A stretch of 64,000 nt of DNA from a virus. The notes under the pieces are model-generated. The model worked only from the letters and a program-made list of their open reading frames with translations. It was not told the DNA's origin and did no database searches. Made by a program: the position numbers and the translations under genes. The stretch is from IMG/VR virus record IMGVR_UViG_3300013108_000188; one strand, given 5' to 3'. Of the stretch, positions 1 through 64,000 are shown one piece after another. Positions within the stretch are counted from its first letter, which is position 1. Each line of letters starts with the position of its first letter.

Positions 1-549
1 GGTTGACTTCACTATTTGAGACCTTGTCATATCTCTAGTCTCTTTACCTTCTGCTGTATCTGTCATTTCTTTAGTTGTGGATAACATACCCAAACTATCT
101 AATACAAACATTATAGGTTTTCTTTTGTCTTCTGGACTCTCCAGATACTTGTCAACTATTTTAATTGATTGTGTTCTAAATTCTTGTACGGTTGAAACTG
201 GTACTACTACAAATCTTTTACTATCAATACCTCTATCTTCAATCATATTTTTAGATACAGCACTTTCACTTTCAAAGTAGATAACTCCTGCGTCTTTGTT
301 ATCATCTAAAAAGTGTTTGCATATTCCTAATGCAAAGAAAGTTTTACCTGTAGCGGCCTCACCTGCAATAGCAGTTATTTTATTACCAGGCATTCCGCCA
401 TATATACTTCCTGATAATAGAGCATTAAGAGAATAGCAACCTGTATCAACAAAACTTGATACATCGCCAGCGTCAACTCCTTCACTTGCTAATGTGGCAT
501 ATTCGTTGCCAGTTTCTTTTATAATGTCTTTTAAAAAATCATTTGTCAT
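1..549 (-). CDS. uvsX: UvsX RecA-like recombinase (5' part; runs off the left edge)
   Basis: Manual translation from ATG at 549: [18 protein letters not shown]...[38 protein letters not shown] (Walker A), then YFESESA and [15 protein letters not shown] upstream. Not in the ORF track because it is truncated. Confidence 0.95.
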
Positions 550-558
550 ATTTTCTCC

Positions 559-587
559 ATACTATCATATTATTAATTAGTTGTCAA
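559..587 (-). promoter_or_regulatory. sigma70-type early promoter for uvsX
   Basis: TTGACA-N17-TAGTAT with TG extended -10. Confidence 0.7.
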
Positions 588-903
588 CAGCCAACTTCTT
601 TCTGGTGAACATATTGAAATTAGATAGGTTTGTATATACTTCACCTTCTATTCTCAACGATTCATCTTTTGGTACCCAATCTTTTGGTGGGTCTTCGTAC
701 TCCTCTGGTCTGATTTTATCCCATAGGTGTACTTTAAATTCGGGTAGTGATACTGGTCCAAATTGGTCATAGATACGACCTTCAAAGTTCATTGCCATAT
801 CCATAACTTGTTCTCTATTATAGGCAACTTTTCTTTGATAATCATAATAAGGTTTTAAATCTTCGTAATCTTTTTTGTTTATGGCCATTCCTTTTCCTAA
901 CAT
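577..903 (-). CDS. hypothetical protein
   Basis: 108-aa ORF in line with its neighbours; true start may be the second Met (MAINKK). Confidence 0.7.
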   Translation of the reverse strand: MLGKGMAINKKDYEDLKPYYDYQRKVAYNREQVMDMAMNFEGRIYDQFGPVSLPEFKVHLWDKIRPEEYEDPPKDWVPKDESLRIEGEVYTNLSNFNMFTRKKLAVDN

Positions 904-2141
904 AAGAAATTCTCCAATGTCGCTTTTCTGCTTGACGCAAAGAAATCATAATCTTTTGGTCCGAAACACCATACATTTTCTATATATGTTTTGGACATAA
1001 AGTCAGCTTTTTCTCTATCATCTTTAAAAAGTTTATCGCTTTTAGGTCGTTGCATAATTCTCATACCGATTTGACCTAGAAACTTATCTCTATGTTTATT
1101 TATTAATTCATCACTTGACCTGTATCTAACATTTTTAACTTTAGGGTCCATAATATTAACTAACATAAACTTACTTTTACTTAATGTTTTTTCTGCAACT
1201 GGTAAATAGAAATCGTCTCTCCATCTTTCATATTCATTAAACTTAAACCAAGATTGATTTTCTTCTTTCTCTCCACCTTTGTTATATTCTTCTGTACTGA
1301 AATAAGGTGGACTTGTAAATGCACAATCTATATCTGGTAGTTCATTATAAGGTAAATCTTCTGCACCACAATTCCATATCTTAACTTTTTTGTTAGGAAA
1401 GATTTTACTATATTCTTCTATCTGTTTATGATATTGTTTATATGTGTTTGGGTTTGGGTCACAACCATAATATTCTGTTGCACTACTAGAAAAGAAACCA
1501 GCAAGTCTATCTCCCCAACCACAACTGGTATCTAATACGGTGTTCGCTTTTGTCATATCATATATTGTTTTAGCAACAAGTGGTTTAAATTGTGTTGCAA
1601 TATATGTACCTAATCTTATTGCTTCTCTATAACTTTTACCTGATAAATCTTTACTACTATTTACACCTCTCCATAATGCACCTAAAATTTTCCATATATC
1701 TTTTGCACTACCTTTTGTCCAAACATCAATTGGTGCTCTAAAACTATAACTTGAACAATTTAATCTTAAATGTTGATGAAAATAATTACTGCACTTATTA
1801 TAATAAGCAGGTGCGTCTATAATACCTAAACCATATTTTGAATATGGATGTTCATAGTCATCATATTTTTCACCTACAATTTTATCTGATTGGTCTTTAG
1901 GTGTACATATTTTACTTGTATCAAAATTACTTAATTGTATAATATTGTCTTTCATTTCCTGATATGAAATATTATTTAAAGGAAACTTTGGTCTGTAAGT
2001 AGCAATATATTCTGATAGTACTTCTCTAAATCTTTCCTTACCTAATTTTTCAGTCCATCTTTTAAACTGAATAGAATCCATAATAGGTAGACCATCTTCA
2101 TTAGCAAAATCTTTTAAATCCATCGTATATAAATCCATCAC
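897..2141 (-). CDS. amino-DNA methyltransferase (m6A/m4C type)
   Basis: SAM-binding motif VLDTSCGWGDR, then GCDPN, then catalytic FTSPPYF. Confidence 0.85.
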   Translation of the reverse strand: MMDLYTMDLKDFANEDGLPIMDSIQFKRWTEKLGKERFREVLSEYIATYRPKFPLNNISYQEMKDNIIQLSNFDTSKICTPKDQSDKIVGEKYDDYEHPYSKYGLGIIDAPAYYNKCSNYFHQHLRLNCSSYSFRAPIDVWTKGSAKDIWKILGALWRGVNSSKDLSGKSYREAIRLGTYIATQFKPLVAKTIYDMTKANTVLDTSCGWGDRLAGFFSSSATEYYGCDPNPNTYKQYHKQIEEYSKIFPNKKVKIWNCGAEDLPYNELPDIDCAFTSPPYFSTEEYNKGGEKEENQSWFKFNEYERWRDDFYLPVAEKTLSKSKFMLVNIMDPKVKNVRYRSSDELINKHRDKFLGQIGMRIMQRPKSDKLFKDDREKADFMSKTYIENVWCFGPKDYDFFASSRKATLENFLC

Positions 2142-2147
2142 TTTTCT

Positions 2148-2243
2148 TTAAGGTTTAGGGTCTTCATTGTTCCACATAATTAATAATGATATAGGTACTA
2201 CATATATCAAAGTTGTCAGTATTATACTATAAAAAATTAACAT
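2148..2243 (-). CDS. 31-aa putative single-pass membrane peptide
   Basis: Manual translation MLIFYSIILTTLIYVVPISLLIMWNNEDPKP; fills the gap between genes but overlaps a promoter. Confidence 0.45.
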   Translation of the reverse strand: MLIFYSIILTTLIYVVPISLLIMWNNEDPKP

Positions 2244-2249
2244 AGTCAA
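2221..2249 (-). promoter_or_regulatory. sigma70-type early promoter upstream of methyltransferase
   Basis: TTGACT-N17-TATAAT. Confidence 0.7.
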
Positions 2250-2254
2250 GCATC

Positions 2255-2587
2255 CTAGATGTTTTCAAATTCCTCCAAGTGTAAATCTATTCCTATAAGT
2301 TCATCTGGTTTACCTTTAGGATAACTCGGCCATACTTTAAATTCTTCTCCTGTTGTATCACTCTTACAACCTGCAACTAACCAATCCCATTTAAAATCTC
2401 CATCTATAACAAACTCGTTCATCACTTCATATCTTCCATCAGGTTTTTGTTTAAGTAATTCTTCTTTACACTCGTCCATTGTTTTAAACCAACCTTGCAT
2501 TTGAAAAGTTTGTTGTGTATCTATTGGACTATGACCAATTAGATATGCTAATATTAATATTTTAAAATCAGCCATTGTACCTTTCAT
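2255..2587 (-). CDS. hypothetical protein with N-terminal hydrophobic segment
   Basis: 110-aa ORF; probable start [14 protein letters not shown]; two Cys. Confidence 0.65.
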   Translation of the reverse strand: MKGTMADFKILILAYLIGHSPIDTQQTFQMQGWFKTMDECKEELLKQKPDGRYEVMNEFVIDGDFKWDWLVAGCKSDTTGEEFKVWPSYPKGKPDELIGIDLHLEEFENI

Positions 2588-3617
2588 ATACTTTGTTGAT
2601 TACATTATTTGCTCTAACGAAACTTGCACATTTAGGTATATCTTTTAATCTTCTTGCACCAATATATGTACAAGCACTTCTAACTCCACCTAATATATCT
2701 TCAACGGTTTCTGAAACTGGTCCTCTATCAGGTAATATAACTAATCGTCCTTCATTACCTCTATAACCATCTTTTCTTTTTCCGTGTATCTCTCTTGCTC
2801 TATCAGAAGACATACCATAAAATTCTCTTTTGCCATCTTTTACTTGCACTTCACTTTCATTATGTCCTGCTAACATACCACCTAACATTATAAAGTGAGC
2901 ACCTGCTCCAAATGCCTTTGCTAAATCTCCTGGCATTGTACAACCACCATCAGCAACTATATGTCCACCAACACCATTAGCGGCGTCAGCACATTCCATT
3001 ACTGCACTAAATTGAGGTACACCTACACCTGCCATAGTTCTTGTCGTACATACACTACCAGGACCAATACCTACTTTAACTACATCTGCACCTCTTATAA
3101 TTAGTTCTTCTGTCATTTCTGCTGTAACCACATTACCAGCGATGATAGTTTTATCTGGATATTCGTCTCTAACTCTTGCTATAAAATCTGAAAAATTTGT
3201 ATGATAACCATTTGCGACATCTATTGTAATAAACTTAACATCTGGAAAACTCTTTAATACTTTTTGCATTGTATTATAGTCTTCTGCTTCATCTGTCCAT
3301 AGTTTATTTGTACCTGAACATACTGATAGATACTTTAATTTAATTCCACTACCAACTGCTTGTTGCCACTCGCCTAATGTTGTTGTCTTTGTAATAGTAG
3401 TCATCATCTTATAATTCTGTAAGACTTTCGCCATACTAAATGTTCCTACTCCGTCCATATTAGAAGCAATAATAGGACAACACTTATATGTTTCTCCACT
3501 ATGTCTAAATTTAAACTCTCTAGTCATATCTACATCACGCCTAGATGATAATGTAGACCTTTTAGGTTTTAATAATACATCTTCATAATTTAATTTTATT
3601 TCAGGTTCTATTCTCAT
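2568..3617 (-). CDS. guaC: GMP reductase
   Basis: [43 protein letters not shown] (catalytic Cys), FYGMSS; no CBS domains. Confidence 0.95.
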
Positions 3618-3691
3618 TTCTTTTTCCTCTTAACTAACCAAGTAATTATACCAGACAAAAAAGCAAATAAAGCACCAATGCCTAATCTCAT
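3614..3691 (-). CDS. 25-aa membrane peptide
   Basis: [25 protein letters not shown]; ATGA overlaps with both the upstream MTase stop and the guaC start. Confidence 0.7.
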   Translation of the reverse strand: MRLGIGALFAFLSGIITWLVKRKKK

Positions 3692-4776
3692 ATTCCTAAT
3701 CTTCCATATTTAGATAATCTTTTATTAATGTCTTTGATATAGTTCTTTTCTCTTTCTATTAAATAATATTCTTTATTCTCTAATATACACGCTTCACCAG
3801 TAGTACCTGTACCAGCAAAAGGGTCTAATACTAATCCATCTTTTGGTGTAGCTAATCTAATTAAGTATCTCATTAATGCAATAGGTTTAACCGTTGGATG
3901 TTTTGTATCTTCTTTTTCTTTTTTACTTGCCTTTGCACTATAGAAATATCTTGCAACAGAACCTTCATCTTTAATTTGAGGTCCTGATTCTAAATATTCT
4001 TCTTTTGCTGATTGTTGTCCACCAATATCTTTACCCATATTACCATAACCAGTAACCTTAACTTTTGGCCAATGACCTGTTGTCTTCTGATTTGGAAACG
4101 ATTCTATTACTTCATCTGAACCATCGTGTATTACATTAGCAGGATAACGACCTTTATCACTTGTCTTAATATCTTTACCTTCAAATTTTCCATAGTCGTT
4201 CTTTGCCATCTTATCTGTTTTAAAAATTCCTTTGCCACCTAATCTTTTATCATCACCATCAACTAATCCTATTCTGCAATCATCTATATTCAAACTAGGA
4301 TTAACTCCTTTTCTTGCCATAACAATAGGTTCGTGTGCTGGTTTTAAATAGTTTTTTCTTTTAGGAAAACCACTACCATATATCCAATTAATCATATCAA
4401 ATATTTCAAACCCAGCGTCTTCTACTGCAACTCCCATTCTATGATAATTTCTAGGAGCGGCAAACGCTAATAGTACTGCACCTGGTTTTATAACTCTATA
4501 TACTTCTTTCCAGAAATCTTTATTAAATGCAATGTCACCACCATCCCAAGTCTGTCCCATAAAACCTTTTGCCGTATTATGATAAGGACCATTTCGTCCT
4601 TCTTTTGTATCTCGGTTATTGATAGCTTTCTGACCAGGTCCAAATCGTTTAACAATGGAAGCTAAATGATATGGTGGGTCTGTAACCACACTATCAAATT
4701 TATTATCTTCTAGTGTTTTTAAATGTTCTAAACTATCTGCATTAATAACAAACGACATACCACTTAATTCCTTCAT
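3688..4776 (-). CDS. beta-class DNA methyltransferase (N6-A/N4-C)
   Basis: VVTDPPY near the N-terminus; HPTVKP and VLDPFAGTGTT near the C-terminus; likely start MSFVINADSL. Confidence 0.92.
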   Translation of the reverse strand: MKELSGMSFVINADSLEHLKTLEDNKFDSVVTDPPYHLASIVKRFGPGQKAINNRDTKEGRNGPYHNTAKGFMGQTWDGGDIAFNKDFWKEVYRVIKPGAVLLAFAAPRNYHRMGVAVEDAGFEIFDMINWIYGSGFPKRKNYLKPAHEPIVMARKGVNPSLNIDDCRIGLVDGDDKRLGGKGIFKTDKMAKNDYGKFEGKDIKTSDKGRYPANVIHDGSDEVIESFPNQKTTGHWPKVKVTGYGNMGKDIGGQQSAKEEYLESGPQIKDEGSVARYFYSAKASKKEKEDTKHPTVKPIALMRYLIRLATPKDGLVLDPFAGTGTTGEACILENKEYYLIEREKNYIKDINKRLSKYGRLGI

Positions 4777-4870
4777 CTTTTAAAAATTGTTCTATCTTTG
4801 GCCATTGACTTGCTGGAAAATCGTGTATCAATTGTTCCTGACCTGCATTTCTGTATATCACTAATCTCAT
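4742..4870 (-). CDS. 42-aa hypothetical protein
   Basis: MRLVIYRNAGQEQLIHDFPASQWPKIEQFLKDEGIKWYVVCY; ATGA overlap with the upstream stop. Confidence 0.6.
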   Translation of the reverse strand: MRLVIYRNAGQEQLIHDFPASQWPKIEQFLKDEGIKWYVVCY

Positions 4871-5355
4871 TTTGTAAGTTCATATTCAAAATTTTGTGTC
4901 TCTTTGTTTATACTAATTTGTTTTGCACCATTTCTAATATGATAATGTGTTGCCATTGGTGTTAATGGCGATAAGGTAACTAATCTTTTAATCTTATTCT
5001 TTTTAGCCCACTCTATTACCTTTTTCATAATCTCTTTACCTGCACCTCTCTTACGAGACCATACCGTATATGCAATAGCATTATTCTTTTCATTTTTTAT
5101 ATCTGCAAGTTCACTCATCATATCTAATTCTTTTATATTGTGAGGAATATCGTTTGTAAATGCAACACAAATAATACCTTCAATCTCATCTTCATATTTT
5201 AATCCATATATCTTTCTACCTTTAGTTATTCTCCAACCTAAAGTTAGTTCAGGTCTTACAGGATCCTCCTCAACATCTATGTCATCTAGTTCAACTAGTT
5301 CAGTTCCTTTAACCCACTTATAAAAGTTTTTAAATTTATCTTTAAATAATTCCAT
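4867..5355 (-). CDS. hypothetical protein, probable GNAT-like fold
   Basis: AYTVWSRKRGAGKEIM (acetyl-CoA-binding loop-like) ...RLVTLSP...HYHIRNGA. Confidence 0.6.
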   Translation of the reverse strand: MELFKDKFKNFYKWVKGTELVELDDIDVEEDPVRPELTLGWRITKGRKIYGLKYEDEIEGIICVAFTNDIPHNIKELDMMSELADIKNEKNNAIAYTVWSRKRGAGKEIMKKVIEWAKKNKIKRLVTLSPLTPMATHYHIRNGAKQISINKETQNFEYELTK

Positions 5356-8493: not shown

Positions 8494-8502
8494 AATAACT
8501 CC

Positions 8503-8531
8503 ATTATATTATAATTGTTAGTCTTTGTCAA
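8503..8531 (-). promoter_or_regulatory. consensus sigma70 early promoter (ferredoxin/gp43 operon)
   Basis: TTGACA-N17-TATAAT. Confidence 0.8.
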
Positions 8532-9996
8532 TAGGCGGCAATCTCTTACTTAATACGAAAGTCCTACTAGGATTTACGCTAGCGTGAAACTGCCTAATCA
8601 TATCTCTATTTAACAAGACATCCGAACCTGACCTTGGTCTTTGGTCTAGTCCAAATTCTATATCTTTATAAGTAAACCCATTGAAAGTCATATCTAACAA
8701 TACGGTTTTTCTTATTTCGCTTGGTTCATCACCAGCGTTTGCTCTAAAAACTCTACTCTCTCCGTGAATTGGTTTAGTATATGTTTTCTTATTATACTTC
8801 CAACTTACCGTTTTACCTTTTATCTTAATATCTTCTGCGTGTAATGAACAAGCTTTAGCTCCATTACCTGTATCTAACTTGGCTCTTATCTTACCAATGT
8901 CTTCTAATTCTATTGTCTCTAACCAACCTGTTTCTATAATTGATTGTCTATCCCAATTACTTCTATCAGAAATATATTTAACAAAGTTTTTAACTAATTG
9001 TTTACCAGTAATTGCACCTCCAGGATTTGGTCCTTCAAGGTCTTTATATGCGTAACCTTCATAATCAGCACCAGTACCAGGAGAACCATTGACTTCAAGT
9101 ACATAGTACTTACCATCAACAATAATATGGTCTACTCCAACTACATATGCTTTACTAGCTCTACTAGCTTTTAAAATAATTTCTATTTCATCATCATTTA
9201 ATTTATAAGGTACTGCCTTAGCACCTCTATGTGTATTAGTTCTAAAATCAAAAGATGATTGTATTCTTTTTGTACTAGCAAATATCTTATTATCTGCTAC
9301 AAAAGTTCTTATATCAAATTTAACAGGCATAAATTCTTGTATTAATAATTCTGCTTCGTGTTTCCATAGTGATTGAATAGTAGATACAAGCGACTCATAA
9401 CTATCACATTTAACAACTCCGATACCTTGCGTACCTGTTAATGTTTTTAATACTACTGGAAACTTACCACCTATTAGTTTTACTGCGTCATCTATATTTT
9501 TTTCGTTAGATACGAAAGCAGTTCTAGGTGTTGGTATTGCAAACTTTTCAAATAATAATGCTGTTGTTAATTTATTATTACAAGTTAACATTGAGTTTCT
9601 TGTATTAATCATAAACGAACCAGAGTTTTGAAAAGCAGATATGATTGAAAGTCCTGCTTCATCTTCAACTGCACCTGCTCTAGTAATACAAATGGTGTCT
9701 CTACCAATAAATGTATGTTCAGTATCTTTACCATCATAGTTATAGATGGTTAAAGTATTCTTTTCTTCGTCTTTACCTGTTATGATTGCGTGTCTAGTTT
9801 CAATAACTATACACTTGATTTTCAATTCTTCGCAAGTCTCAGCAATCAGACCAACGGTTAATTCCTTTTTCTCCTTACCACCAACTTTTCTTTTTTTGAT
9901 GTTCGGATGAGTTTTGGTAACTACCGCTATCTGTATAGTTCTATCAGAACCTTTTTTTGCTTCGGTTATGAAATCTTTGAAATTTGATACTTGCAT
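8518..9996 (-). CDS. rimK: RimK-family ATP-grasp ligase fused to a retropepsin-like (RimB-like) protease domain
   Basis: NKL...PTPRT, PVVLKTLTGTQGIGV, IQEF, DIR, FRTNTHRG, GVD, LEVNGSPG; C-terminal GWLE...AKLDTGN...SLHA...VLLNRD. Confidence 0.9.
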   Translation of the reverse strand: MQVSNFKDFITEAKKGSDRTIQIAVVTKTHPNIKKRKVGGKEKKELTVGLIAETCEELKIKCIVIETRHAIITGKDEEKNTLTIYNYDGKDTEHTFIGRDTICITRAGAVEDEAGLSIISAFQNSGSFMINTRNSMLTCNNKLTTALLFEKFAIPTPRTAFVSNEKNIDDAVKLIGGKFPVVLKTLTGTQGIGVVKCDSYESLVSTIQSLWKHEAELLIQEFMPVKFDIRTFVADNKIFASTKRIQSSFDFRTNTHRGAKAVPYKLNDDEIEIILKASRASKAYVVGVDHIIVDGKYYVLEVNGSPGTGADYEGYAYKDLEGPNPGGAITGKQLVKNFVKYISDRSNWDRQSIIETGWLETIELEDIGKIRAKLDTGNGAKACSLHAEDIKIKGKTVSWKYNKKTYTKPIHGESRVFRANAGDEPSEIRKTVLLDMTFNGFTYKDIEFGLDQRPRSGSDVLLNRDMIRQFHASVNPSRTFVLSKRLPPIDKD

Positions 9997-11794: not shown

Positions 11795-11827
11795 AATATA
11801 TACTCCATAATAAAATTAAACAAAAAA

Positions 11828-13675: not shown

Positions 13676-13680
13676 AATTG

Positions 13681-14181: not shown

Positions 14182-14622
14182 TTACACATAATTTGTACTA
14201 TAAAATTTTAAATATTTGTATTCTTCTGGTGACAAATCTTTAATAAAGACCATTTTTTCTTGGTCCATATATACATCATACCTAACTTCACCATTTTTTC
14301 TTTTGGTTTTTCCACATTTAAATCCTTCTTTTATCTCCCACATCCTAGCTTGAGGACTTCTATCTGTTGGACACTCAATCCAAATAAAACCTTTTTTACA
14401 TTTTTCTATTTGATTTAATTTTAAACTACAACAATTATTAACTACATACCTTGTTTGTGTTTTAATTTCTTTTCTTTTATCATCTACTAAAATATCTTTC
14501 TCCATATCAAATGGATTTAAAGATAGATGTATTTTATGACCTAGTGAAGAACAATGATTAGCATAAATCTTCTCTCCTAAATCTCCTAAAATTTTCATTC
14601 TTTCTTTTTCACTTATGTTCAT
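14182..14622 (-). CDS. hypothetical protein, possible PD-(D/E)xK nuclease
   Basis: GDLGE...KDILVD...EIKT spacing matches the restriction-endonuclease-like fold. Confidence 0.5.
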   Translation of the reverse strand: MNISEKERMKILGDLGEKIYANHCSSLGHKIHLSLNPFDMEKDILVDDKRKEIKTQTRYVVNNCCSLKLNQIEKCKKGFIWIECPTDRSPQARMWEIKEGFKCGKTKRKNGEVRYDVYMDQEKMVFIKDLSPEEYKYLKFYSTNYV

Positions 14623-15041
14623 TTCATATACCTTGTTAAAGCAGTTTCAATTTTAGTTTCATCAAAGAATAATGTCGCCTTGGTGTTTATAGTATCTCCA
14701 TTATATTTTGTTTTATATGCGTGGCAATTTCTACAAAGTGTTTGTACATTTTTAGGAACATTGTTCCATCTATCTCCATCTATATGGTCCATTTCTAACA
14801 TACAACTATCTTCAATCTTTGCTTCACACCAAATACCTAATCTTCCATCTTTATTCTCACAATAAGTTTTCTTATGTGGTGTAACCCCAGGTCTATTACG
14901 ACCTCCCATATGACATCTATAACACTCCGTTCTAACATCATAAGTACCGTTCTTATTTACCTTTCTGGTATGTACAGGACTTCCACAACCATCGTTGATA
15001 CAATCTGGTTTAAATTCTTTATAATGATTTTTCTTTATCAA
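14619..15041 (-). CDS. HNH endonuclease with Zn-binding cysteines
   Basis: MDHIDGDRWNNVPKNVQTLCRNCH; N-terminal Cys pairs. Confidence 0.85.
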   Translation of the reverse strand: MIKKNHYKEFKPDCINDGCGSPVHTRKVNKNGTYDVRTECYRCHMGGRNRPGVTPHKKTYCENKDGRLGIWCEAKIEDSCMLEMDHIDGDRWNNVPKNVQTLCRNCHAYKTKYNGDTINTKATLFFDETKIETALTRYMK

Positions 15042-33202: not shown

Positions 33203-34540
33203 TTACGCAAGGTTAACAACTTGTACTTTTCTGTAGTATCTGTTAGAGTTAGCAGCACCAGCACCATCAATCACAGCGTCAGAAGAAGCACTAGCTTCAG
33301 CAAAAGGATTTGCCTGTAAGCCGTATCTTGTTTTGAAACCGATTTTTGGTTGGAAAGTGTCTTGGCCAACTGCTCTAACCATTTGTAAAGGTACATATGG
33401 GCAATAGAACATACCAGCGTCATAAGGAGAAGTTCCTTTATAACCAACTACATAAAATTGTTTAGCAGCTTGGTTTGCTGAGTAAGGGTCTATATACACT
33501 TTAAATCTACCGTTAAGAACACCAGCAAAAGTATTGCCTGTGTCATCAACATTTAGATTATTGTTAAGTGCAGGAGCATAGTCAAGGATGCCAGCCATTT
33601 GAAGAGCAGAAGCAACATCAGAAGAACAAACGATTATGTTCCCTTTACCTCTTCTGGTTCTTTGAGCAACAGCGTTAGCGTCTCTCTCTAATTGGAACAT
33701 TAAACCTTTAAATCTCTCAACTGACCATCTACCGTTAGAGTCTGTATCTAAATCAAAGATTCCAGCGTTAGTTGTGTCCGTTTGAGCACCTTTTTCTGAA
33801 TTAATGTAAATTGTTCTAACAACTTCTCTATTAATTTCAGCAAGGATTTCAGCAGATAAGATGTTCGCTAATTCTGTTTCAGCGTCTAATCCGTGAATTG
33901 CTTTAAGGTCTTGTGCAAGTTCCATTGTATATTCTGCTTTAAGAGCTCTACTTTTCGCAGTTACCGTTGATTTCTCAATTGAGAAAGCCATTTCAGCAAA
34001 AGCGTTTCCAGCAGAATCTCCAAGTGCTTCAGCACTAGCAGTCGCCATACCTGAACCAGAAGTATAAGTTCCAGCAGGTGAGTCGTTTAATATACCAGGG
34101 TTGTTTTGAGCAGGTGAATTTGAAGAAGTACCAGCACTTCCAGGAATGTTTGCGTTAGCAGCGTTTCCAGAAAATTTAGATTCAGCTTCGTCAAATAATG
34201 CTTCAGTTCCGCCTTGAGTTTTGTATCTGCTTCTCATTGCGAATATAAGTCCAGTAGGTCCGCTCATAGGTTGTACACCAGCAATATCGTAAGCGATAAG
34301 GTTTGGCATAGCTCGTCTAACTAAACTAATTAGGATTGGATCCCAGTTAGCAATGTTAGCACCTGTAGCGTTGGCAGGAGCCGCTTCGGCCATAAATTGA
34401 GCGTCTTCTTTAAGCGCTCTTTCTTGGTTTTCCAAGATAACCGAGGTTACAGCTCTTTTGTAGCTATCGCTGATTTTTGGTAAATCAGGATGGTCTAATA
34501 CTGGCTGCCATTTTTTTTGGTAGTTTTCAGATAAATACAT
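33203..34540 (-). CDS. gp23: major capsid protein (gp23)
   Basis: KWQPVLDH, GVQPMSGPTGLIFAMR, RALKAEYTMELAQDLKAIHGLDAE, FQPKIGFKTRYG. Confidence 0.99.
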   Translation of the reverse strand: MYLSENYQKKWQPVLDHPDLPKISDSYKRAVTSVILENQERALKEDAQFMAEAAPANATGANIANWDPILISLVRRAMPNLIAYDIAGVQPMSGPTGLIFAMRSRYKTQGGTEALFDEAESKFSGNAANANIPGSAGTSSNSPAQNNPGILNDSPAGTYTSGSGMATASAEALGDSAGNAFAEMAFSIEKSTVTAKSRALKAEYTMELAQDLKAIHGLDAETELANILSAEILAEINREVVRTIYINSEKGAQTDTTNAGIFDLDTDSNGRWSVERFKGLMFQLERDANAVAQRTRRGKGNIIVCSSDVASALQMAGILDYAPALNNNLNVDDTGNTFAGVLNGRFKVYIDPYSANQAAKQFYVVGYKGTSPYDAGMFYCPYVPLQMVRAVGQDTFQPKIGFKTRYGLQANPFAEASASSDAVIDGAGAANSNRYYRKVQVVNLA

Positions 34541-37508: not shown

Positions 37509-37895
37509 TTAATTACTTTGTTCTGAACCAGAATCAGCAGGTGCTTCTGCAGGTGCTGTTTCGGCAGGTGCCGTATCAGCAGGTGTAGCATTAGCAGCTC
37601 CATCTGGCGTCATTGCTGTTTGTACATCATCCCTTGTTGCAGTCTGAGCAATCGGATCAGCCACTTCTGGTTTAGGATCCGAGTGAGGTTCTGCCTGTCC
37701 AGGCGTTTGTGTCATAACATCCCTAGCAGCGTTAAATAGATTACTCGCATAATCTTTTCTGCTAGCATCCAAAGCGTCACCAACTTTATTTCTTAATGCG
37801 TCTTTAAATGCTTCACCAGCACTTTTGTTATCACCACTTGCAAGTTTATCAACAAACTTTTCTGTATCTGTCTGTTTTGTTTCATTATCAGCCAT
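37509..37895 (-). CDS. prohead core protein (gp67-like)
   Basis: Immediately downstream of the portal; helical N-terminus and acidic Ala/Pro-rich tail. Confidence 0.6.
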   Translation of the reverse strand: MADNETKQTDTEKFVDKLASGDNKSAGEAFKDALRNKVGDALDASRKDYASNLFNAARDVMTQTPGQAEPHSDPKPEVADPIAQTATRDDVQTAMTPDGAANATPADTAPAETAPAEAPADSGSEQSN

Positions 37896-43739: not shown

Positions 43740-44214
43740 CTTTTGTCTCTATTGGTTCTAATTCATCTTGCATTTTTTCTGAAGTTGTTTTAAGTTTTTT
43801 ATCTTTTAACATCTTTTGCAAGTCTGTAGTACTCCCAACAAATAAAGCATTTTTGATATTGGCAGTTGTCTTATTAGGCACCTCTTTTAATTTTGATAAT
43901 TTAGCTTGTAAGTCTTGTAATTTATCAACGGTGTCTGCTACATTTTTAATTAATGCACCTGCAACTTCATATGCTCTTGGATGTTGTCCTTCTTTTGCAA
44001 CATCTAATATACCTTGTATTGCGTCTTGTCCTCTCTCAATAAGATTATAATAATTCTCTCTACTATATTTGTAATCATTATCTATATCGTCCTTTTTAGG
44101 ATCCTCTTTTCTAGGTACAGGAACTTTTTTCTCTTGCACCATTAATTCAGCGACAGGAGTACTTTCTTCCTTAATACCTAAAATATCATTTACTTTGTCT
44201 TCTAGTTTTCCCAT
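43729..44214 (-). CDS. gp16: terminase small subunit (gp16)
   Basis: DYKYSR, HPRAYEV, NALFVGST. Confidence 0.95.
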   Translation of the reverse strand: MGKLEDKVNDILGIKEESTPVAELMVQEKKVPVPRKEDPKKDDIDNDYKYSRENYYNLIERGQDAIQGILDVAKEGQHPRAYEVAGALIKNVADTVDKLQDLQAKLSKLKEVPNKTTANIKNALFVGSTTDLQKMLKDKKLKTTSEKMQDELEPIETKDDN

Positions 44215-46568: not shown

Positions 46569-47372
46569 TTATCCTATCATTAATGCTTGGTGTTCTTGTA
46601 GAGATTTTATTTCTTCCTCTAACTTCTCTATATCTGCTAATGCCTGTGTATAGATTTGTTCACCATTTAAGGTTACTCCACCTATCATAGCAACACCAGC
46701 AAATTTTGATAGATTGGCACCCCATTGTTTTTTAACTAGTGCAGTTGTGTATTTCTTTAACCAAATATCATTATAGACATCTGTATAAGTGTCTGGATCC
46801 ATTTTTCTATAGCATTCAATAACAATATATTCATCTACCATTAAATCGTTTTCCCAATCCATATCTACATATAATCTATTATCGTGTTGGTTAAATCTTA
46901 AAGGTTTTTCACCAACTAATATATGGTCTAGGAAATCTAGTTGTCTCATAACTACATCATAGTTAATTACAGAAGTTGATGAGAAATCATATAGGTCATT
47001 TAATCTTAATTGGTATCTTACATCAAATAAATTTAAATTACCTTTGTTTGAAAAAGGAAATATATTTGTAACCGAAAATACGGTTTCTGGAACAACAATA
47101 TAATTGTTATCTTCTTTCCAAGTAGAGGTTACAGAATTTTTTGTAGCACCTTCAGTATTACTAGTTAACATTCTAGTTTTTTCTGCTTGTGTATATTGCC
47201 ATTTTAAGTATGTTCTTTTGATACCATCATAGTGATATTGTTGCCAATATTGTAATGCTTCATCTACTCTATCATCTATTTGGTCATCATCAACATTTAT
47301 TTCTATGACAGGATGCCCCAATGCCCTTTTAGCATAAGAGATTAATGTCTGTCTTGTATTAGGTTGAGCCAT
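46569..47372 (-). CDS. gp13: neck protein (gp13)
   Basis: LGHPVIEINVDDDQ, QWGANLSKF, GGVTLNG. Confidence 0.95.
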   Translation of the reverse strand: MAQPNTRQTLISYAKRALGHPVIEINVDDDQIDDRVDEALQYWQQYHYDGIKRTYLKWQYTQAEKTRMLTSNTEGATKNSVTSTWKEDNNYIVVPETVFSVTNIFPFSNKGNLNLFDVRYQLRLNDLYDFSSTSVINYDVVMRQLDFLDHILVGEKPLRFNQHDNRLYVDMDWENDLMVDEYIVIECYRKMDPDTYTDVYNDIWLKKYTTALVKKQWGANLSKFAGVAMIGGVTLNGEQIYTQALADIEKLEEEIKSLQEHQALMIG

Positions 47373-53199: not shown

Positions 53200-53226
53200 A
53201 TTACTCTTTCCTTAATACTTAATTAA

Positions 53227-53616: not shown

Positions 53617-53650
53617 TGTTATTTCTCCGTTTTCTTTTTTGTTATACTTC

Positions 53651-53658
53651 TATTTATA
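53651..53658 (-). promoter_or_regulatory. T4-type late promoter
   Basis: TATAAATA. Confidence 0.75.
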
Positions 53659-53659
53659 A

Positions 53660-57748: not shown

Positions 57749-57774
57749 TTTAGTTTCCTATTTCCCTCTTATTA

Positions 57775-57782
57775 TATTTATT
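57775..57782 (-). promoter_or_regulatory. late promoter variant
   Basis: AATAAATA. Confidence 0.55.
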
Positions 57783-60700
57783 ATCCAAGAACAGGTGGTT
57801 GTGCAATTGAGTGGTAGTTTGAGTCATTTTGTCCCATCATATAATCTCCACCGTAACCCCACATTAGGTACCTGTTATCAAATGTTCTAATTTCTCTAAA
57901 GTGGTATCTGTTACCATCTGTAGAGTAATAACCTCTTCCTCTTACATCTTCGATTCTGCCGTGTGCATAGTTCGGCATTCTTTGCATTTGGAAGTAATAG
58001 TCATCTGTTTCTTCTATGTTGTTTGTAGATTGTCTGTTAGTATAGTCAGAAGACCAACCTTGGCATCCAATTCCATAGTTGTTTCTTCCAGTATTAAACA
58101 TAAATCCATCGTAAGTTAATACCCATACATTACACATCCATTGGTTACCATATTCACTATTGCAACCTATGTCTTTAATATTTTCTAAATCAGCAGTTGT
58201 TGTTCCATTAATTTGCCATTTAGGATCAACAGCACTTGATTGGTTGTTGTTATTTCCAATTCCTAATTCATAAGAACCATTGTAACCACAACATTTTATA
58301 GCACCTGTACTATCTTTAGTCCAGAAACTTGCGTATCTTCCATTTCCAGTAAACCACATATTAGCGCAATATGAATTAGTTCCGCTTCCAGGTCCACCAG
58401 ACATTTGAGTAAATGTATTAACATCTGTTGTATTTCCCATCATCGCCCATCCATATTCATTTCTTCCAGACCAATATATTTTACCTTTGTCTGTAAGAAC
58501 AGCAACCCTTTGGTATGATTGTTGAGAATCAACTAATAATTTTTTAATTGTACCAGCGTTTGAAGAACCATTATCAAAGGTTACACCAGTTATTTCAGTT
58601 GGTACTGATAAGTTTGTTGTGTTACCTTGAGCAAGTACTCCATATCCATTATAACCCCAACTATATAATTTTCCAGCAGTATCTAAAGCGAAACAGAAAG
58701 CGTATCCTGCCCCAGCAGTCCAGAAAGCAAGAATCTTATTACCATTAAAGTAAGAAGTCTTGTTAATTTTAGTTGGTCTGTTTAAATTTGTAGTATTGTT
58801 TTGTCCTAATTGACCATAACCATTATAACCCCACGCCCATAGTTCTCCGTCAGTATCTAACGCATAACAAGAGTGTGTATTTGTGTTATTGTCTCCGCCC
58901 CAATTAGTAACCCATATTCTTTTAATTTTTGTATCTTTTAAAGTGTGTGTTGAAGTGTTAGCAGCAAGATAAACTTCCTGATATGTTCCACCACATCTTA
59001 CTGGATAACTTCTATTTGAAGTAGCAGCGTCACCACTTTGTCCGTGACCTCCGTAACCCCAATGGTATATTTCGCCATTATTAAATAATGCCATACCACT
59101 TTCATATCCAGATATTAATTGAAGTGCTTTAGGTGGTTCTCCATCAGGAGTAGTATGAACACCACTACCACCGTTATCTGTACTTCTATACCAATCTGTA
59201 AATGGGAAAGTCATTCCAACTCCCATTAATACAGAACCTTGATTAATTCCGTTTTGTCCATTTGAGTTTGAACCCCAACTTGTAATACCACCACGACCAT
59301 TAATAAAACACGGCCAGTTAACGCAATTAGCTTGTTGGAATTGTCCAGGTAATCTGTAATACTTGTTATCGTCTCCAATTGGACCATTTGTATTACATAG
59401 AGACATACACTCTAATCTGTTTCCTGTAAATCTTGTAGCATAACCTCTAGCTTTTTTACTTGTACTTGCAACATCAAAGGTTACATTTGAAGAAGAATAA
59501 AATATTTGTCCATCAAATCCTAATTGGTCATTAGTAGCGTTATTTTCTCCACCAAATACTGGTGCTTCATTATCGTTATACCATTGTGCGTATTGTCTTC
59601 CTTGTCTATCGTCTTTGGCTAAATTAATGTTTAATGCACCCCAAGTTCCTATTGCAGTAATCTTTAATACAACATCTGGAGCACCACCTCCACCGAAACT
59701 TGAATCAGCAAAAGTTAATTCTTCGTTAACAGCATATCCTAATCCACCCATATCACCACCAAGATTTTTCTTCGTAAGAACAGCTTTGGTTACTTTTCCT
59801 TCCATATCAACTTCAAAATCCCAATAGGAGTTTGAACCACCACCACTTGAAGAAGTATGGGTTACATTATTGTATTTTCCTTTTTTTCTTTTGTAATGAG
59901 CACTTGTTTCAATTGTCCAAGTTTTTGCAGATTGATAACCTTCTACTTCAACATCAAACATTGGAGGATTATATCCACCTGTTCTACCAGCATTTGAGTT
60001 TTCAGCAGCGGCAGTTATGTTTTTAGAATTAACAGACCAGTAAAATCCTTGTTTTCTACTTGGAGAAGCAGCAGATATGTTTGTAATTGTAGCAACAGCT
60101 CCACTATCTTCAACTATCTCATCATCAAATTGCATTTCTTCTGAAATTCTTTCCCAATACTTATTGTCGTCTGTATCAACTTCTTGGTCCCAAGGTAAAA
60201 ACTTACTTGTACCATCGCAAGTATGCTGTCTTATACAAATATAAGTAGCTCTTGCAGATTGAATATGCTCTTGGTCCATAACCGTTTCAGAAAAGTCGTT
60301 ATCTAAAGGAACAACTATTCTTACTATGTCATTTGTGTAATAAGTTTGATATGAACCACTATCGTTTGTGTTATCGTGTTCACCTCTCCATTTAAATGAT
60401 TGTCTAATCGGTTTCCAAATTGAATGGTCAGCAACAACTATTTTAGGACCCCAATTGGCACTTGGATTATCATAGTTAAACATATAAATTTCTTTAGGTG
60501 TTTCACTTGTAAAATCTATTCTAATTTCTCTTTTAGTAGCATTGTTAAAAGCTGATGAATTAAAATATTCATTAGTTGCCGTACCAGCACCAACAGCTTT
60601 ACCATTTAAGAAATAGGTAACATCTTTGTGGTATAAATTTGTATTTTTGTTTGTAGATGAATCTGAAAAAGCAATTTTGTTATCATCAAAATCGTTTCCA

Positions 60701-60999
60701 TCTTGGTGTAAAACTAAAGTATCACCAATTTTATATTGTACTTCTGATTGAGGCCAAGCAGCTTCACCATCCCATTTATATGCGTTAGAACCTGTACTAG
60801 CTGAAACAGCTTTAGTAATTCTGACATATCTTCTTTGATTGTCTACTGGAGCAGTTCCCGTTGTAGCAGAATTCTTTGTACAAATCCAATCTGTGTTGTT
60901 GTACATAACAACATCGTCTTTATAATATGTTTTTGTACTTGAATATTCTCCTTGATAATTGAAGAACAGATTTCCAATTCTAGTTTTTGTTGTTGCCAT
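57781..60999 (-). CDS. large virion protein with RCC1-like propeller
   Basis: IGNLFFNYQGEY N-terminus; GELWAWGYNGYGQLGQ and GKLYSWGYNGYGVLAQG repeats. Confidence 0.75.
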   Translation of the reverse strand: MATTKTRIGNLFFNYQGEYSSTKTYYKDDVVMYNNTDWICTKNSATTGTAPVDNQRRYVRITKAVSASTGSNAYKWDGEAAWPQSEVQYKIGDTLVLHQDGNDFDDNKIAFSDSSTNKNTNLYHKDVTYFLNGKAVGAGTATNEYFNSSAFNNATKREIRIDFTSETPKEIYMFNYDNPSANWGPKIVVADHSIWKPIRQSFKWRGEHDNTNDSGSYQTYYTNDIVRIVVPLDNDFSETVMDQEHIQSARATYICIRQHTCDGTSKFLPWDQEVDTDDNKYWERISEEMQFDDEIVEDSGAVATITNISAASPSRKQGFYWSVNSKNITAAAENSNAGRTGGYNPPMFDVEVEGYQSAKTWTIETSAHYKRKKGKYNNVTHTSSSGGGSNSYWDFEVDMEGKVTKAVLTKKNLGGDMGGLGYAVNEELTFADSSFGGGGAPDVVLKITAIGTWGALNINLAKDDRQGRQYAQWYNDNEAPVFGGENNATNDQLGFDGQIFYSSSNVTFDVASTSKKARGYATRFTGNRLECMSLCNTNGPIGDDNKYYRLPGQFQQANCVNWPCFINGRGGITSWGSNSNGQNGINQGSVLMGVGMTFPFTDWYRSTDNGGSGVHTTPDGEPPKALQLISGYESGMALFNNGEIYHWGYGGHGQSGDAATSNRSYPVRCGGTYQEVYLAANTSTHTLKDTKIKRIWVTNWGGDNNTNTHSCYALDTDGELWAWGYNGYGQLGQNNTTNLNRPTKINKTSYFNGNKILAFWTAGAGYAFCFALDTAGKLYSWGYNGYGVLAQGNTTNLSVPTEITGVTFDNGSSNAGTIKKLLVDSQQSYQRVAVLTDKGKIYWSGRNEYGWAMMGNTTDVNTFTQMSGGPGSGTNSYCANMWFTGNGRYASFWTKDSTGAIKCCGYNGSYELGIGNNNNQSSAVDPKWQINGTTTADLENIKDIGCNSEYGNQWMCNVWVLTYDGFMFNTGRNNYGIGCQGWSSDYTNRQSTNNIEETDDYYFQMQRMPNYAHGRIEDVRGRGYYSTDGNRYHFREIRTFDNRYLMWGYGGDYMMGQNDSNYHSIAQPPVLG

Positions 61000-61021
61000 T
61001 GTTTATCTTCCTAATTTACTA

Positions 61022-61029
61022 TATTTATA
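61022..61029 (-). promoter_or_regulatory. T4-type late promoter
   Basis: TATAAATA. Confidence 0.75.
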
Positions 61030-64000
61030 TTGTTTCTATTACCAAATCTCCAGCTTTGTCTATATTAATTTGCATAGTGCCGTTGATAAATTCAAATCCT
61101 TCAGCTTTATCTGTACCATCAAAACGAGTACTTTCTTTTTGGATTAGTTCATTAGCATTTGTAATAACTCTTCGTTTTAATGCCAAATCAACATCATCAA
61201 TTGAAAGTGTTTGTAATGTTGGAGTACCTTGCGAATCAACATATGATTTATTAACTATGTCGTTAGCAGCCGAAGGTGTAATTCCTATTTGTGTTTGTGC
61301 GTTTAATGTAATTATACCATCGTTTTGTGTTCCAATAGTTAAATTAACATCTGTTCCACTTAATCCTGTTGTAGAAATAGTTTGTCCTGTTGCAGTAATT
61401 GAACCTGCCGTTAATGAGTTAACTGACAAGTCGTTTTGACCACCACCAAGTTGTCCATCTACATAAGTCTTAATAGCTCTTTCGGTTACAAGAGCAGTAT
61501 CAGAATTGTCTGCCAATGTTCCGTCTGTACTAAATTCAGCAATTGTAGCACCAAAGTTTCCTTGAGCACTTGAACCTAAACTTAATTCTTGTAATCCAGA
61601 AAGGTCAAATGCTTCGGCATTCAATGTTGCCTTACCAGTTGCCTGTTCAATTTTAAATAGATTACCTACTCTAAAGTTACCATCTTGGTCTGTTGAAGAA
61701 TAGAATACTCTTCCTCTATCAGCTTCATAGATTTCATCATTAGCGTCTGCCGCCTGTGTTGGAGCATTTGGATAATTAGTTGTTGCAATATCTCCAGTAC
61801 CAACATCTAGGAAGTCGTGTCCTGTTAATCTTATGTTTGAGTAATTACTTCTTAAAGTAGCAGTTTCAGCGTGAGTTGGTTTGTTAGCAGTTGTAAATTT
61901 AGGATTTACTCTAACCGTTCCAGCACCAGCAGAATATCCTGTAACCGCCACAACATAGTAAGCTTGTCCAGTTATTCCAGCAAACTCTACAATGTCTCCA
62001 CCTGTAGGTGATTTTGATAATCCTGTTAATCTAACAAAGGCAGTACCTTCACTTGATATTTCAGCATAACCATTACCAGATATAGTAGCAGTTGTTGTTT
62101 CTGTTTTGTATCCAGAACCAGCAGTTCCAACCGTTGTTTGTGATATTACTCCATCTCCTATTTCAGAAGTAGCAGTACCAACCGTTGAAGCGTTAGGGTC
62201 TGTAATTGTTACCGTTGGTGCAGAAGAATAACCAGCACCTCCGTCTAATATATAAATTTTTGAAATTTGTTGATTATCTACAACAGCTCTAGCGAGTGCG
62301 TCTCTTGTTGGAGAACCACCACCAGAAATAGTCACTCTTGGTTCTATTTCGTAACCAGATGTTGTATCAAAAGTTGTTGCAGAAGATAAACCAGAGTTTA
62401 CCCATACATCCCAACCTGCAGTACCATTATTTTTTTGTACCGTACAAGTTTTTGTAGAAGCAACATAGTCAGTTATGATTGCAGTATTACCGTAACCAGT
62501 TCCAGTATAAACATTTATTCTCATTCCATTATAGAAATCGTCTGGTTGTGAATCAGAAGCAGCAAGTTTTAATGTAGTTGAAGTTCCTGATTGTGCAAAT
62601 CCTGAAGTTGTAAAGTGAGTTGAACCATTTGTTGCAACTTTAATATGTTTTACAGCACCATCGTTAAATGAAGCAGTAGCGGCACCTGAAGCACCAGAAC
62701 CAGCAAACGCAATAGTGGCAGAAGAATAACTTTCCCCAGCGTATTCAAATTCTAATCTTCCAATACCTGAACCAGCAATTAATACTCTTCCTACTCTTGC
62801 TTCGTTGTTTCTTAAATCTACCGTTCCAGTATAAGGTGTTTCTGAAGCGTCAATACCAGCAGCAGTTGAACCATATTCTCCATAAGAGTTGTTAGAGTTC
62901 AAACTTCTGATAACAGCTCCACTATCAGCCAAATAACCGTGATGGCAGTAATAAGTGAATACTGATACTAATTCTGATTTAGCATTTGATAATGCCCATA
63001 CACCAATACCATCACTTGAAATTTGTGTAAAGTCGTTTGCAAGAATTGAAGCATATCCACCACCGTGTAGTGAACCATCAATCTTAATACCAACTGAACC
63101 AGTTCCAAAGTGTGTACAATTTTGTATAAATGGAGATTTATATTCAATCCAAGCAGAATTGTCTGTAGTACCTGTACCTGGGTCTAAAGCGATAACTACA
63201 CCTGAACGAGTAGCACCGTCAGCAGTATTTGGTCTTGCTACGCCATTTGCGTCAGCAGCACCCATAGTTCCTAACATTCCAGAGAAAGTCATACCAGTCA
63301 TCGTCACTCCATCCCTAACTCTAAACATATCAGCTCTTGCGTTAGGTGTGTTAGTTAGACCACTTGCAGTTGAATTTCCTGAAGCAGGTTTAATTTTTGT
63401 ACTTCTTACTCCATCACCAATAATTTGTGTGTTCGCAGGAACAACAATTGGTAATGCTTCTGAATATGTTCCAGTTTTAACATAAAGCGTTTTATTAACC
63501 GTATCTCTTGGATAAGTTTTAGTTCCTTCAGAACAAGTATAAACTATTCCAGATAATTTAACTTTATCACCTGTTGTTAATCCGTGAACAGCAGAAGTAG
63601 TAATTGTTACCACACCTGTTGAGTTGTTATACGGAGCGTCTGAAATTGAAAGTGTACTATAGTCTGATTTAGTTACCGTACCACCACTTGAATAAGTGTG
63701 AGCATAACTTGAAGTAGCTAAAGTAATTGTAAATATTGTTGTGTTTGTAACCGTAACCGTGTAATCTAATCCAGAGTTACCTGTGTCTTTCATCCAATTA
63801 CAAGCATATGCTATTGTTGCCCAAGGTTTATCTAAAGAAGTTCCTCTACCAGTATCACTACTTGGTAAAGCGTCTGTACCGTGAGGTGCAACAAAATATA
63901 CATTGTCATTAGTTTGAGCAAGTGCCCAAGCAACATCTGTACCATCAGATTTTAACATTGAGCCAGTTGTACCAATAGGTAATCTGACATTCTGTGTTGC
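61025..64000 (-). CDS. tail fibre/tailspike-like virion protein with parallel beta-helix (5' end beyond the window)
   Basis: Frame is open to the window edge (ATQNVRLPIGTTGSML...); VYFVAPHG.D...G.S...PWATI..A, V..GTY.E..PI..P, SPFIQNCT, NDFTQI; Gly/Thr-rich repeats. Confidence 0.8.
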   Translation of the reverse strand, partial: ATQNVRLPIGTTGSMLKSDGTDVAWALAQTNDNVYFVAPHGTDALPSSDTGRGTSLDKPWATIAYACNWMKDTGNSGLDYTVTVTNTTIFTITLATSSYAHTYSSGGTVTKSDYSTLSISDAPYNNSTGVVTITTSAVHGLTTGDKVKLSGIVYTCSEGTKTYPRDTVNKTLYVKTGTYSEALPIVVPANTQIIGDGVRSTKIKPASGNSTASGLTNTPNARADMFRVRDGVTMTGMTFSGMLGTMGAADANGVARPNTADGATRSGVVIALDPGTGTTDNSAWIEYKSPFIQNCTHFGTGSVGIKIDGSLHGGGYASILANDFTQISSDGIGVWALSNAKSELVSVFTYYCHHGYLADSGAVIRSLNSNNSYGEYGSTAAGIDASETPYTGTVDLRNNEARVGRVLIAGSGIGRLEFEYAGESYSSATIAFAGSGASGAATASFNDGAVKHIKVATNGSTHFTTSGFAQSGTSTTLKLAASDSQPDDFYNGMRINVYTGTGYGNTAIITDYVASTKTCTVQKNNGTAGWDVWVNSGLSSATTFDTTSGYEIEPRVTISGGGSPTRDALARAVVDNQQISKIYILDGGAGYSSAPTVTITDPNASTVGTATSEIGDGVISQTTVGTAGSGYKTETTTATISGNGYAEISSEGTAFVRLTGLSKSPTGGDIVEFAGITGQAYYVVAVTGYSAGAGTVRVNPKFTTANKPTHAETATLRSNYSNIRLTGHDFLDVGTGDIATTNYPNAPTQAADANDEIYEADRGRVFYSSTDQDGNFRVGNLFKIEQATGKATLNAEAFDLSGLQELSLGSSAQGNFGATIAEFSTDGTLADNSDTALVTERAIKTYVDGQLGGGQNDLSVNSLTAGSITATGQTISTTGLSGTDVNLTIGTQNDGIITLNAQTQIGITPSAANDIVNKSYVDSQGTPTLQTLSIDDVDLALKRRVITNANELIQKESTRFDGTDKAEGFEFINGTMQINIDKAGDLVIETI

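Follow-up and report, generated by a model that had tools for sequence, protein, structure and literature searches.

Removal of restriction-type words from a T4-like Pelagibacter myophage and the flanking bases of the copies that survive

A 64,000-nucleotide stretch of the virus record IMGVR_UViG_3300013108_000188 (the window, analysed over its full length) lacks a series of short restriction-type words, and the surviving copies of several of these words carry fixed neighbouring bases; the questions raised by this locus are what removed the words and why certain copies were spared. The window belongs to a T4-like myophage of Pelagibacter (SAR11): its genes come in the T4-like myophage order (DNA polymerase, clamp loader, UvsW/UvsY, capsid, portal, sheath, terminase, neck and tail fibres), and its structural genes share 77-82% DNA identity with the Pelagibacter phages Mosig EXVC030M (Mosig below) and HTVC008M. 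Base composition is AT-rich (32.8% GC) and strand-skewed; the minus strand carries 65 of the 66 genes called.

Words removed from the window

An earlier reading of this DNA from its letters (the sequence-only reading) had proposed that CATG, HGATCD, HGATGC and ACWGT are avoided throughout. Exhaustive counts were compared with 300 synonymous-codon shuffles within genes, which preserve proteins and codon usage, and are given as observed against the shuffle mean. CATG occurs 0 times against 115 expected (lowest shuffle 92), ACWGT 0 against 94 (lowest 79), HGATCD 0 against 85 (lowest 68) and HGATGC 0 against 68 (lowest 50); the zeros thus lie far under the lowest of the 300 shuffles, and AGATCT and TGATCA, whose persistence in number would have spoken for chance, also count 0 each. 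All listed motifs are therefore real, but the list proved incomplete, as an unbiased search over all 6-mers in the IUPAC code revealed many further purged words. ACGT (0/92, observed/expected), CASTG (0/39), AGSCT (0/39), CCGG (0/23) and CGCG (0/12) are missing without exception in any context; the 6-mers TCTAGA (0/18) and CTTAAG (0/8) are also at zero, and TCGA (6/85), GATATC (1/15) and GTATAC (1/10) are almost eliminated. GANTC is not purged (92 against 136). Altogether some 20 short restriction-type words have been removed across 1..64000. The cores CATG, GATC, ACGT, TCGA, CCGG, CGCG, CTNAG, TCNNGA, ACNGT, CASTG, GCATC and CAGAG, plus several of the 6-mers, presumably match enzymes listed in REBASE; we know of no REBASE match for HGATCD, ACWGT or AGSCT as such.

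Removal is achieved through GC-richer synonymous codons, by which every unprotected copy of the approximately 20 words has been eliminated. The codon preferences described from the sequence hold without dispute: histidine before G is encoded by CAC in 80/80 cases (CAC 30% elsewhere), aspartate before C by GAC in 67/67 non-exempt contexts, Asp-Ala by GAC in 63/63 cases except after a codon ending in G, where GAT is used in 7/9, and Thr-Val by ACC or ACG in 68/68 (10% elsewhere), with no ACAGT or ACTGT in the window against 108 copies of ACCGT or ACGGT. The codon switch rises to 100% only where a site would otherwise form. The AT-rich, strand-skewed composition could suggest that no selection is involved and that the absences simply reflect composition, codon usage, amino-acid content or mutation bias; this is almost certainly wrong, and is refuted by the zeros falling far below the minimum of shuffles that keep proteins and codon usage, by codon-context tables in which the complete synonymous switch is confined to site-creating contexts, and by close relatives of the same composition that retain the words. 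The word GGTTAC/GTAACC is over-represented 2.7-fold (58 against 21, Markov model) in many genes and several frames, for example at 63749-63761; the excess seems to follow from the forced ACS-GTN and GGT-TAC codon choices and not to be a signal.

Survivors obey a flank rule, which the sequence-only reading had recognised for two cores with correct example positions: all 18 copies of GATC are GGATC or GATCC, and all 14 copies of GATGC/GCATC are GGATGC/GCATCC; the chance of the rule given the survivors is 1.5e-7 for GATC and 1.8e-13 for GATGC. Five of the 18 GATC copies are two-sided GGATCC (5261..5266, 34338..34343, 37675..37680, 44099..44104 and 46795..46800); the other 13, being GGATC or GATCC, start at 23154, 35964, 37655, 39161, 40534, 41644, 41657, 44249, 45175, 51092, 51794, 56284 and 58224. 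GCATCC survivors start at 2250 (2250..2255), 15567, 25959, 27231, 37765, 39532, 41079, 41160, 49303 and 58063, and GGATGC survivors at 21358, 33586, 42124 and 47311. Neither GGATCC (5 against 4.8) nor GGATGC (14 against 9.5) is depleted relative to the codon shuffles, and one-sided GGATCD is partly depleted (13 against 56); GGATCC is entirely neutral, and there is partial tolerance of one-sided copies.

Other cores are divided in the same manner (observed/expected): TCNNGA into purged TCDHGA (0/95) and tolerated TCCHGA (86/74), CTNAG into purged HCTNAGD (1/80) and tolerated GCTNAGD (21/35), CAGAG into purged DCAGAG (1/48) and tolerated CCAGAG (13/10), and CATCTC into purged CATCTCD (0/24) and tolerated CATCTCC (4/9). 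The ACWGT purge fits an ACNGT core with ACSGT tolerated; ACSGT is enriched in the window (108 against 79). Sites that start with GA (GATC, GATGC, GAGATG, GANTC and the GA arm of TCNNGA) are kept only after G, giving GGA/TCC; in the window this trinucleotide spares GATC, GATGC, CATCTC and TCNNGA, and the lone GATATC survivor is GGATATC. When short contexts were tested across motifs the survivors overlapped GGA/TCC, but CTNAG is kept as GCT, CAGAG is kept as CCA, and CATG and ACGT have no sparing context; exemption in the window is motif-specific. A universal shield formed by a 5' G or a GG/CC step was considered and fails in the window, where CATG, ACGT, CASTG, CCGG and CGCG are unspared and the 3' C end of GATGC confers none. 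RGCY methylation behind the GCTNAG exemption was likewise ruled out, the survivors being preceded by T or C and not R. In the literature, no paper describing flank-conditional site avoidance was found.

Relatives, podophages and the origin of the flank rule

Whether related phages share the motif set, a question posed by the sequence-only reading, is answered differently near and far: the nearest relatives have the whole set, and more distant ones hold mosaic subsets. The nearest relative (G001, 21.9 kb) has the entire purged set, ACWGT included, as do L007 and L008, its closest relatives by portal, save three CATG in L008. The complete 177-kb relative G002 purges CATG (0/524), HGATCD (0/370), HCTNAGD (1/370), DCAGAG (10/140) and TCGA (2/524), as well as CCGG and CGCG, and retains ACGT and ACWGT. 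HGATCD is at 0/186 in Mosig and 0/197 in HTVC008M; both also purge HGATGC, CASTG, CGCG and TCTAGA, though not CATG or ACWGT, and each has purges of its own (ACGT, CGWCG and AGTACT in Mosig; TCGR, TCDHGA, GANTC and GAATTC in HTVC008M). Among the 80 IMG/VR relatives the majority of motifs are near-absent or near expectation in a mosaic pattern, and such all-or-none subsets point to selection by many sequence-specific agents, each met or not met per lineage. A 50-kb sample of KVP40 purges CCGG, GGCC, CCWGG and GGWCC, with survivors too few for a flank rule to be read.

The host side bears on the same question. G279, a 1.16-Mb, 30% GC, proteorhodopsin-encoding alphaproteobacterial genome that is most likely SAR11 judging by size, GC and proteorhodopsin, keeps the words (observed/expected 1.21 for GATC, 1.14 for HGATCD and 0.80 for CATG); since it retains GATC and CATG, the purge of the window is not inherited host composition. 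The synonymous nature of the purge, its all-or-none character per motif, the differences among close relatives and the unpurged state of G279 together argue for selection by sequence-specific nucleases, and restriction avoidance is a sound reading of the pattern. Avoidance of sites acted on by the phage's own modification enzymes, offered from the sequence as the alternative, finds no support, since the same words are lost from relatives in which no DNA methyltransferase can be recognised.

The flank rule extends to the relatives. GGA/TCC spares five motifs in HTVC008M, namely GATC, GANTC (44/45 pooled survivors), GATGC, CATCTC and TCNNGA; the base 5' of GGA matches the genome-wide NGGA distribution with no further base preference, so that the context is the bare trinucleotide. 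HTVC008M also uses other contexts, with CCGG kept as GCCGG, GGCC kept as CGGCC and AGCT tolerated as CAGCTG. Mosig and some other myophages tolerate only two-sided GGATCC. As separate observations, GGATCC is 2.5-3-fold enriched over the codon-shuffle null in Mosig (19 against 6.5) and HTVC008M (28 against 11), and CAGCTG is enriched approximately 2-fold over a Markov model in both; these enrichments suggest conversion of harmful sites to a tolerated form, or a function of the words themselves. Copies of CAGAG without a 5' C in G002 occur in 6/10 cases as CAGAGTCT, which may be a candidate conserved regulatory or structural word.

The podophages HTVC011P, HTVC019P and HTVC010P were isolated on the same strain, HTCC1062, on which HTVC008M and Mosig were likewise cultured, and they purge the shared cores plainly: GATC is at 0/88 and GANTC at 0/88 in HTVC011P, GATC at 0/95 and GANTC at 1/95 in HTVC019P, and CTNAG at 0 in HTVC010P, including GCTNAG at 0/33. 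Pooled counts (observed/expected, for no G flank, one-sided G and two-sided G in turn) give the same contrast. For GATC the myophages, pooled as 32 sequences with HGATCD purged, show 2/1637, 216/660 and 83/67, and the podophages, pooled as 81 loci, show 0/2025, 0/827 and 0/85; for GANTC the myophages (HTVC008M and one other) show 0/328, 38/132 and 10/13, and the podophages 20/1615, 3/660 and 0/67. Because podophages of the same strain purge GATC, GANTC and CTNAG without exemption, the flank rule is better placed on the phage side than in the nucleases; we infer that it is a property of the T4-like phages, centred on GGA/TCC. As a side observation, HTVC010P keeps GATC (131 against 103) and is poor in ACGT (3/103), ACSGT (0/33), CCGG (0), CGCG (0), GGCC (0) and GCGC (1); it thereby avoids the opposite half of ACNGT from the window, and its ACSGT loss probably comes from general CpG loss.

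The sequence-only reading had attributed the pattern, as one option, to host restriction systems, some with degenerate specificities; the sequence-specific nucleases stand, however HGATCD and HGATGC are probably a core site with a phage-side exemption, since podophages purge the cores without one. That the hosts' enzymes recognise HGATCD, HGATGC, HCTNAGD, TCDHGA, DCAGAG and ACWGT as such is improbable, although it would explain how crisp the rules are (0 of 85, 68 and 95 expected for HGATCD, HGATGC and TCDHGA) and why the GATC state varies among myophages between loss of HGATCD, of HGATC and of all GATC; real enzymes with 'not-X' positions exist, for example GDGCHC, and a few relatives avoid a roughly complementary set (YCHGGA, with TCDHGA normal). 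However, GATC, GANTC and CTNAG are always flank-limited in myophages and always plain in podophages of the same strain, a rule borne by an enzyme should not vary by phage family, and many independent enzymes would have to share 'not G before GA'. The relatives with the complementary set (L062, L063, L071 and L077) keep TCDHGA and have lost TCCNGA/TCNGGA, best described as YCHGGA, which is roughly the complement of the window set.

A phage-side rule could also arise kinetically, if G-flanked sites were merely cut more slowly and T4-like phages, with their fast takeover and recombination-dependent replication and repair, tolerated such sites while small podophages could not, with no modification involved. 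This is unlikely, if somewhat less so than degenerate specificities. It explains the contrast between myophages and podophages without a methyltransferase, which fits HTVC008M, and accounts for the gradient from two-sided through one-sided to no G flank and for motif-to-motif differences in exempt flanks; among the CTNAG survivors of podophages a weak gradient runs the same way (0.013, 0.064 and 0.14). Against this, GGATCC stands at or above expectation in the window, Mosig and HTVC008M at the counts given above and so looks neutral instead of mildly harmful; a 5' G before GA would have to slow the nucleases of every one of five unrelated motifs in a single phage; and podophage GATC (0/827) and GANTC (3/660) show no gradient.

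Putative protection and candidate enzymes

The reading preferred here, which is moderately favoured, attributes the purge to nucleases and the flank rule to context-specific protection of the DNA of T4-like phages; it ranks above kinetic tolerance, followed by degenerate specificities and, as a distant fourth, self-avoidance by phage nucleases (discussed below). The selecting agents would be sequence-specific nucleases across the host population, most likely restriction-modification (RM) systems scattered through the SAR11 pan-genome, and each phage lineage would show its own all-or-none subset because the systems are so scattered. A phage function would place a blocking group on a base within the site in a context-specific manner; in the neatest version the A of GGA would carry an N6-methyl group or some other adduct. 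That adenine is the one which we take to be modified by the cognate methylases of GATC, GANTC, GCATC and TCNNGA systems, so that adenine modification at GGA would be an economical explanation. Protection would be incomplete, and the phage would still purge the copies out of its reach. The phage itself probably supplies the putative protection. The more specific proposal of an unrecognised modification at GGA/TCC (and perhaps GCY and CCA) in T4-like marine phages including HTVC008M, made by enzymes outside known families, is advanced tentatively and may well be wrong. If it were true, the GGA shield would imitate cognate methylation of many GA-type systems at once (GATC, GANTC, GCATC and TCNNGA), and the genome would be purged only of copies beyond that shield.

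Window genes without a counterpart in Mosig or HTVC008M include three methyltransferase-like genes, all on the minus strand, which are candidate protection enzymes for this phage; orthologues of all three are carried by G002. The DNA methyltransferase gene at 3688..4776 belongs to the beta-class N6-adenine/N4-cytosine family with catalytic motif DPPY, its product matching Pfam PF01555 (E 2.6e-38), CcrM in PDB (4.6e-18), PADLOC MTase_II (8e-45) and also NCBIfam; the closest named relatives are of the CcrM/DpnA type, and an orthologue is present in G002 and in neither Mosig nor HTVC008M. A divergent gene at 897..2141 has an SPPY motif and a weak PF01555 match (1.9e-4), with no PDB or PADLOC match and no counterpart found in Mosig or HTVC008M; its G002 orthologue clears the Pfam cut-off at 27.5 bits. 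A second divergent gene at 19404..20564, also with SPPY, matches PF01555 weakly (4.7e-4) and PADLOC MTase_II (5.5e-7), and was found in neither Mosig nor HTVC008M. The SPPY motif is typical of N4-cytosine methyltransferases. The coincidence of three exempt contexts (GGA, GCT and CCA) with three methylase-like genes (one DPPY and two SPPY) is suggestive, nothing more. A GANTC purge is absent from the methylase-bearing window and G002 and present in the methylase-less HTVC008M; that the DPPY enzyme is a candidate GANTC protector is speculation, and HTVC010P, without PF01555, also keeps GANTC.

Other candidates were weighed and set aside. A canonical phage methylase behind the GGATC exemption is weakened, as the annotated 'methyltransferases' of Mosig and HTVC008M are generic FkbM/O-methyltransferase types, and Mosig has no match to PF01555, PF02086 or PF00145. 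A 7-deazaguanine route was rejected, no TGT/DpdA being present in HTVC008M; with neither a known DNA methyltransferase family nor DpdA in that phage, a canonical methylase is not the general answer. A small conserved protein, DUF6433, carries an NPPY/DPPY tetrapeptide and is encoded at 139169-139630 in HTVC008M, where the gene adjoins RNase H, at 117861-118394 in Mosig and at about 87784-88299 in G002; it was set aside as a candidate methylase, no obvious glycine-rich S-adenosylmethionine-binding motif being seen on reading its sequence.

On the host side, RM systems are sparse but present: D12-class adenine methylases are found in 19/301 genomes of the probable SAR11 order. One genome (G642; locus L289, G642:C1, 4428-7946) has an operon in which two tandem D12 adenine methylases accompany a full-length type II restriction enzyme of 542 amino acids (PADLOC REase_II, E 6e-61), a layout typical of systems whose site is asymmetric. 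A single D12 methylase, in reading frames of 335-348 amino acids, is shared by fifteen other genomes; at the one locus examined, in G544, it lies between bipA and groEL beside a 182-amino-acid open reading frame. Published accounts disagree on the extent of SAR11 restriction: a 2026 single-cell survey ranks type II RM first among defences, with a predominance of Alphaproteobacteria, Pelagibacterales among them (preprint 10.64898/2026.09.15.751803), and in SAR11 methylomes obtained by SMRT (single-molecule real-time) sequencing, methylation is confined to GANTC/GAWTC and RM systems or genes are few (PMC9516812, PMC8919816). These methylomes weigh against the protection reading, as do several further points. 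DpnII-family nucleases were found in 0/301 genomes of the probable SAR11 order; with this and the sparse published SAR11 RM, the selecting nucleases can only be deduced. HTVC008M has no match to PF01555, PF02086, PF00145, PF05063, PF05869 or PF02384, yet follows the GGA rule, so that context-specific protection there would need a novel enzyme, the modification being a prediction from sequence. No flank yields a survivor of CATG, ACGT, CASTG, CCGG or CGCG in the window, though 50-65 G- or C-flanked CATG were expected, and several contexts are required (GGA, GCT and CCA; in HTVC008M also GCC, CGG and CAG). Some myophages also purge one-sided GGATC (Mosig at 0/81-90; L015, L026, L027, L040 and L062). 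The podophage loci are closely related (portal identity 82-100%) and hence not independent samples, and the natural hosts of podophages and myophages may differ.

It has also to be considered that the nucleases are the phage's own. Chloroviruses turn short-site nucleases on host DNA; phage nucleases here might similarly degrade host DNA for nucleotides, the phage being protected by missing sites and not by methylation. The purge is complete and binary as this would require, unmethylated GATC and CATG abound in the host genome (G279 counts; PMC9516812), and recognisable RM is scarce in SAR11 (PMC8919816; DpnII search). Such self-avoidance is nonetheless very improbable: it would take approximately 20 nucleases, the same words have been lost from unrelated podophages, the host order does contain RM operons, G002, Mosig and HTVC008M all lack a DpnII family member, and among the window-specific open reading frames no restriction-type nuclease was found, only a small HNH homing-type gene. 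This last gene (14619..15041, minus strand) has a weak Pfam HNH match and a PADLOC match to HNH/homing endonucleases (6e-7); it was not found in Mosig or HTVC008M, and no tie between it and the purge was found.

Known systems and neighbouring genes

Restriction-site avoidance in lytic phages is textbook knowledge, and surveys of avoidance across prokaryotic viruses exist; staphylococcal phage K is said to have lost GATC. The window resembles such cases in that words of 4-6 bases are strongly under-represented through synonymous changes that vary by lineage, however it differs in having about 20 words at zero in an AT-rich 64 kb, in the strictly flank-conditional survivors, and in a host whose known RM is scarce. 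For the putative protection the nearest parallel is Mom of phage Mu, which places an adenine adduct in a limited context and blocks many restriction enzymes; the proposed function would similarly be a single phage function acting on adenine in a short context and blocking several enzymes at once, but the context here is GGA, and protection would be incomplete, with the purge still needed. Pfam scans of the window-specific open reading frames gave no match to Mom, although no search aimed at Mom was made. Sites are also known to be blocked by overlapping methylase targets, as with chlorovirus methylases of 2-3-base specificity (GC, CCD and RAG) and the multispecific methylases of Bacillus phages. 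A modification with a 3-base context would likewise protect just the overlapping sites, and the window has three methylase-like genes; in contrast to these systems, the rule holds in HTVC008M, which has no recognisable methylase, and the modification here is hypothetical. Marine myovirus genomes carry approximately 2.2 methylases each, and the viral methylation motifs reported (RGCY, CCNGG, GGWCC and GGHCC) differ from GGA (PMC8919816).

Within the same host group, some pelagiphage clades are GANTC-depleted and motif density partitions lineages (Seong et al. 2022, PMC9516812); HTVC011P, HTVC019P and HTVC008M are GANTC-purged in the present counts too. That study covers one motif, mainly in podophages, without the other words purged here, and the keeping of GANTC in HTVC008M only as GGANTC is absent from it. 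The purge in the window is among the most thorough seen, which suggests that sequence-specific nucleases are a major and under-counted force on pelagiphages. Avoided sets would then act as lineage-specific bar codes of the nucleases that each phage meets, and could link uncultured phages to host subpopulations and predict new restriction specificities. A flank rule seen in myophages and absent from podophages of the same host strain points to protection of T4-like phage DNA; the phage-side reading of such a rule is the new result here.

Two further minus-strand genes of the window resemble auxiliary metabolic genes. An IMPDH/GMP-reductase family gene (E 5e-67) lies at 2568-3617 between methylase genes, and the gene at 8518-9996 encodes a RimK-type ATP-grasp domain fused to a putative zinc-protease domain.

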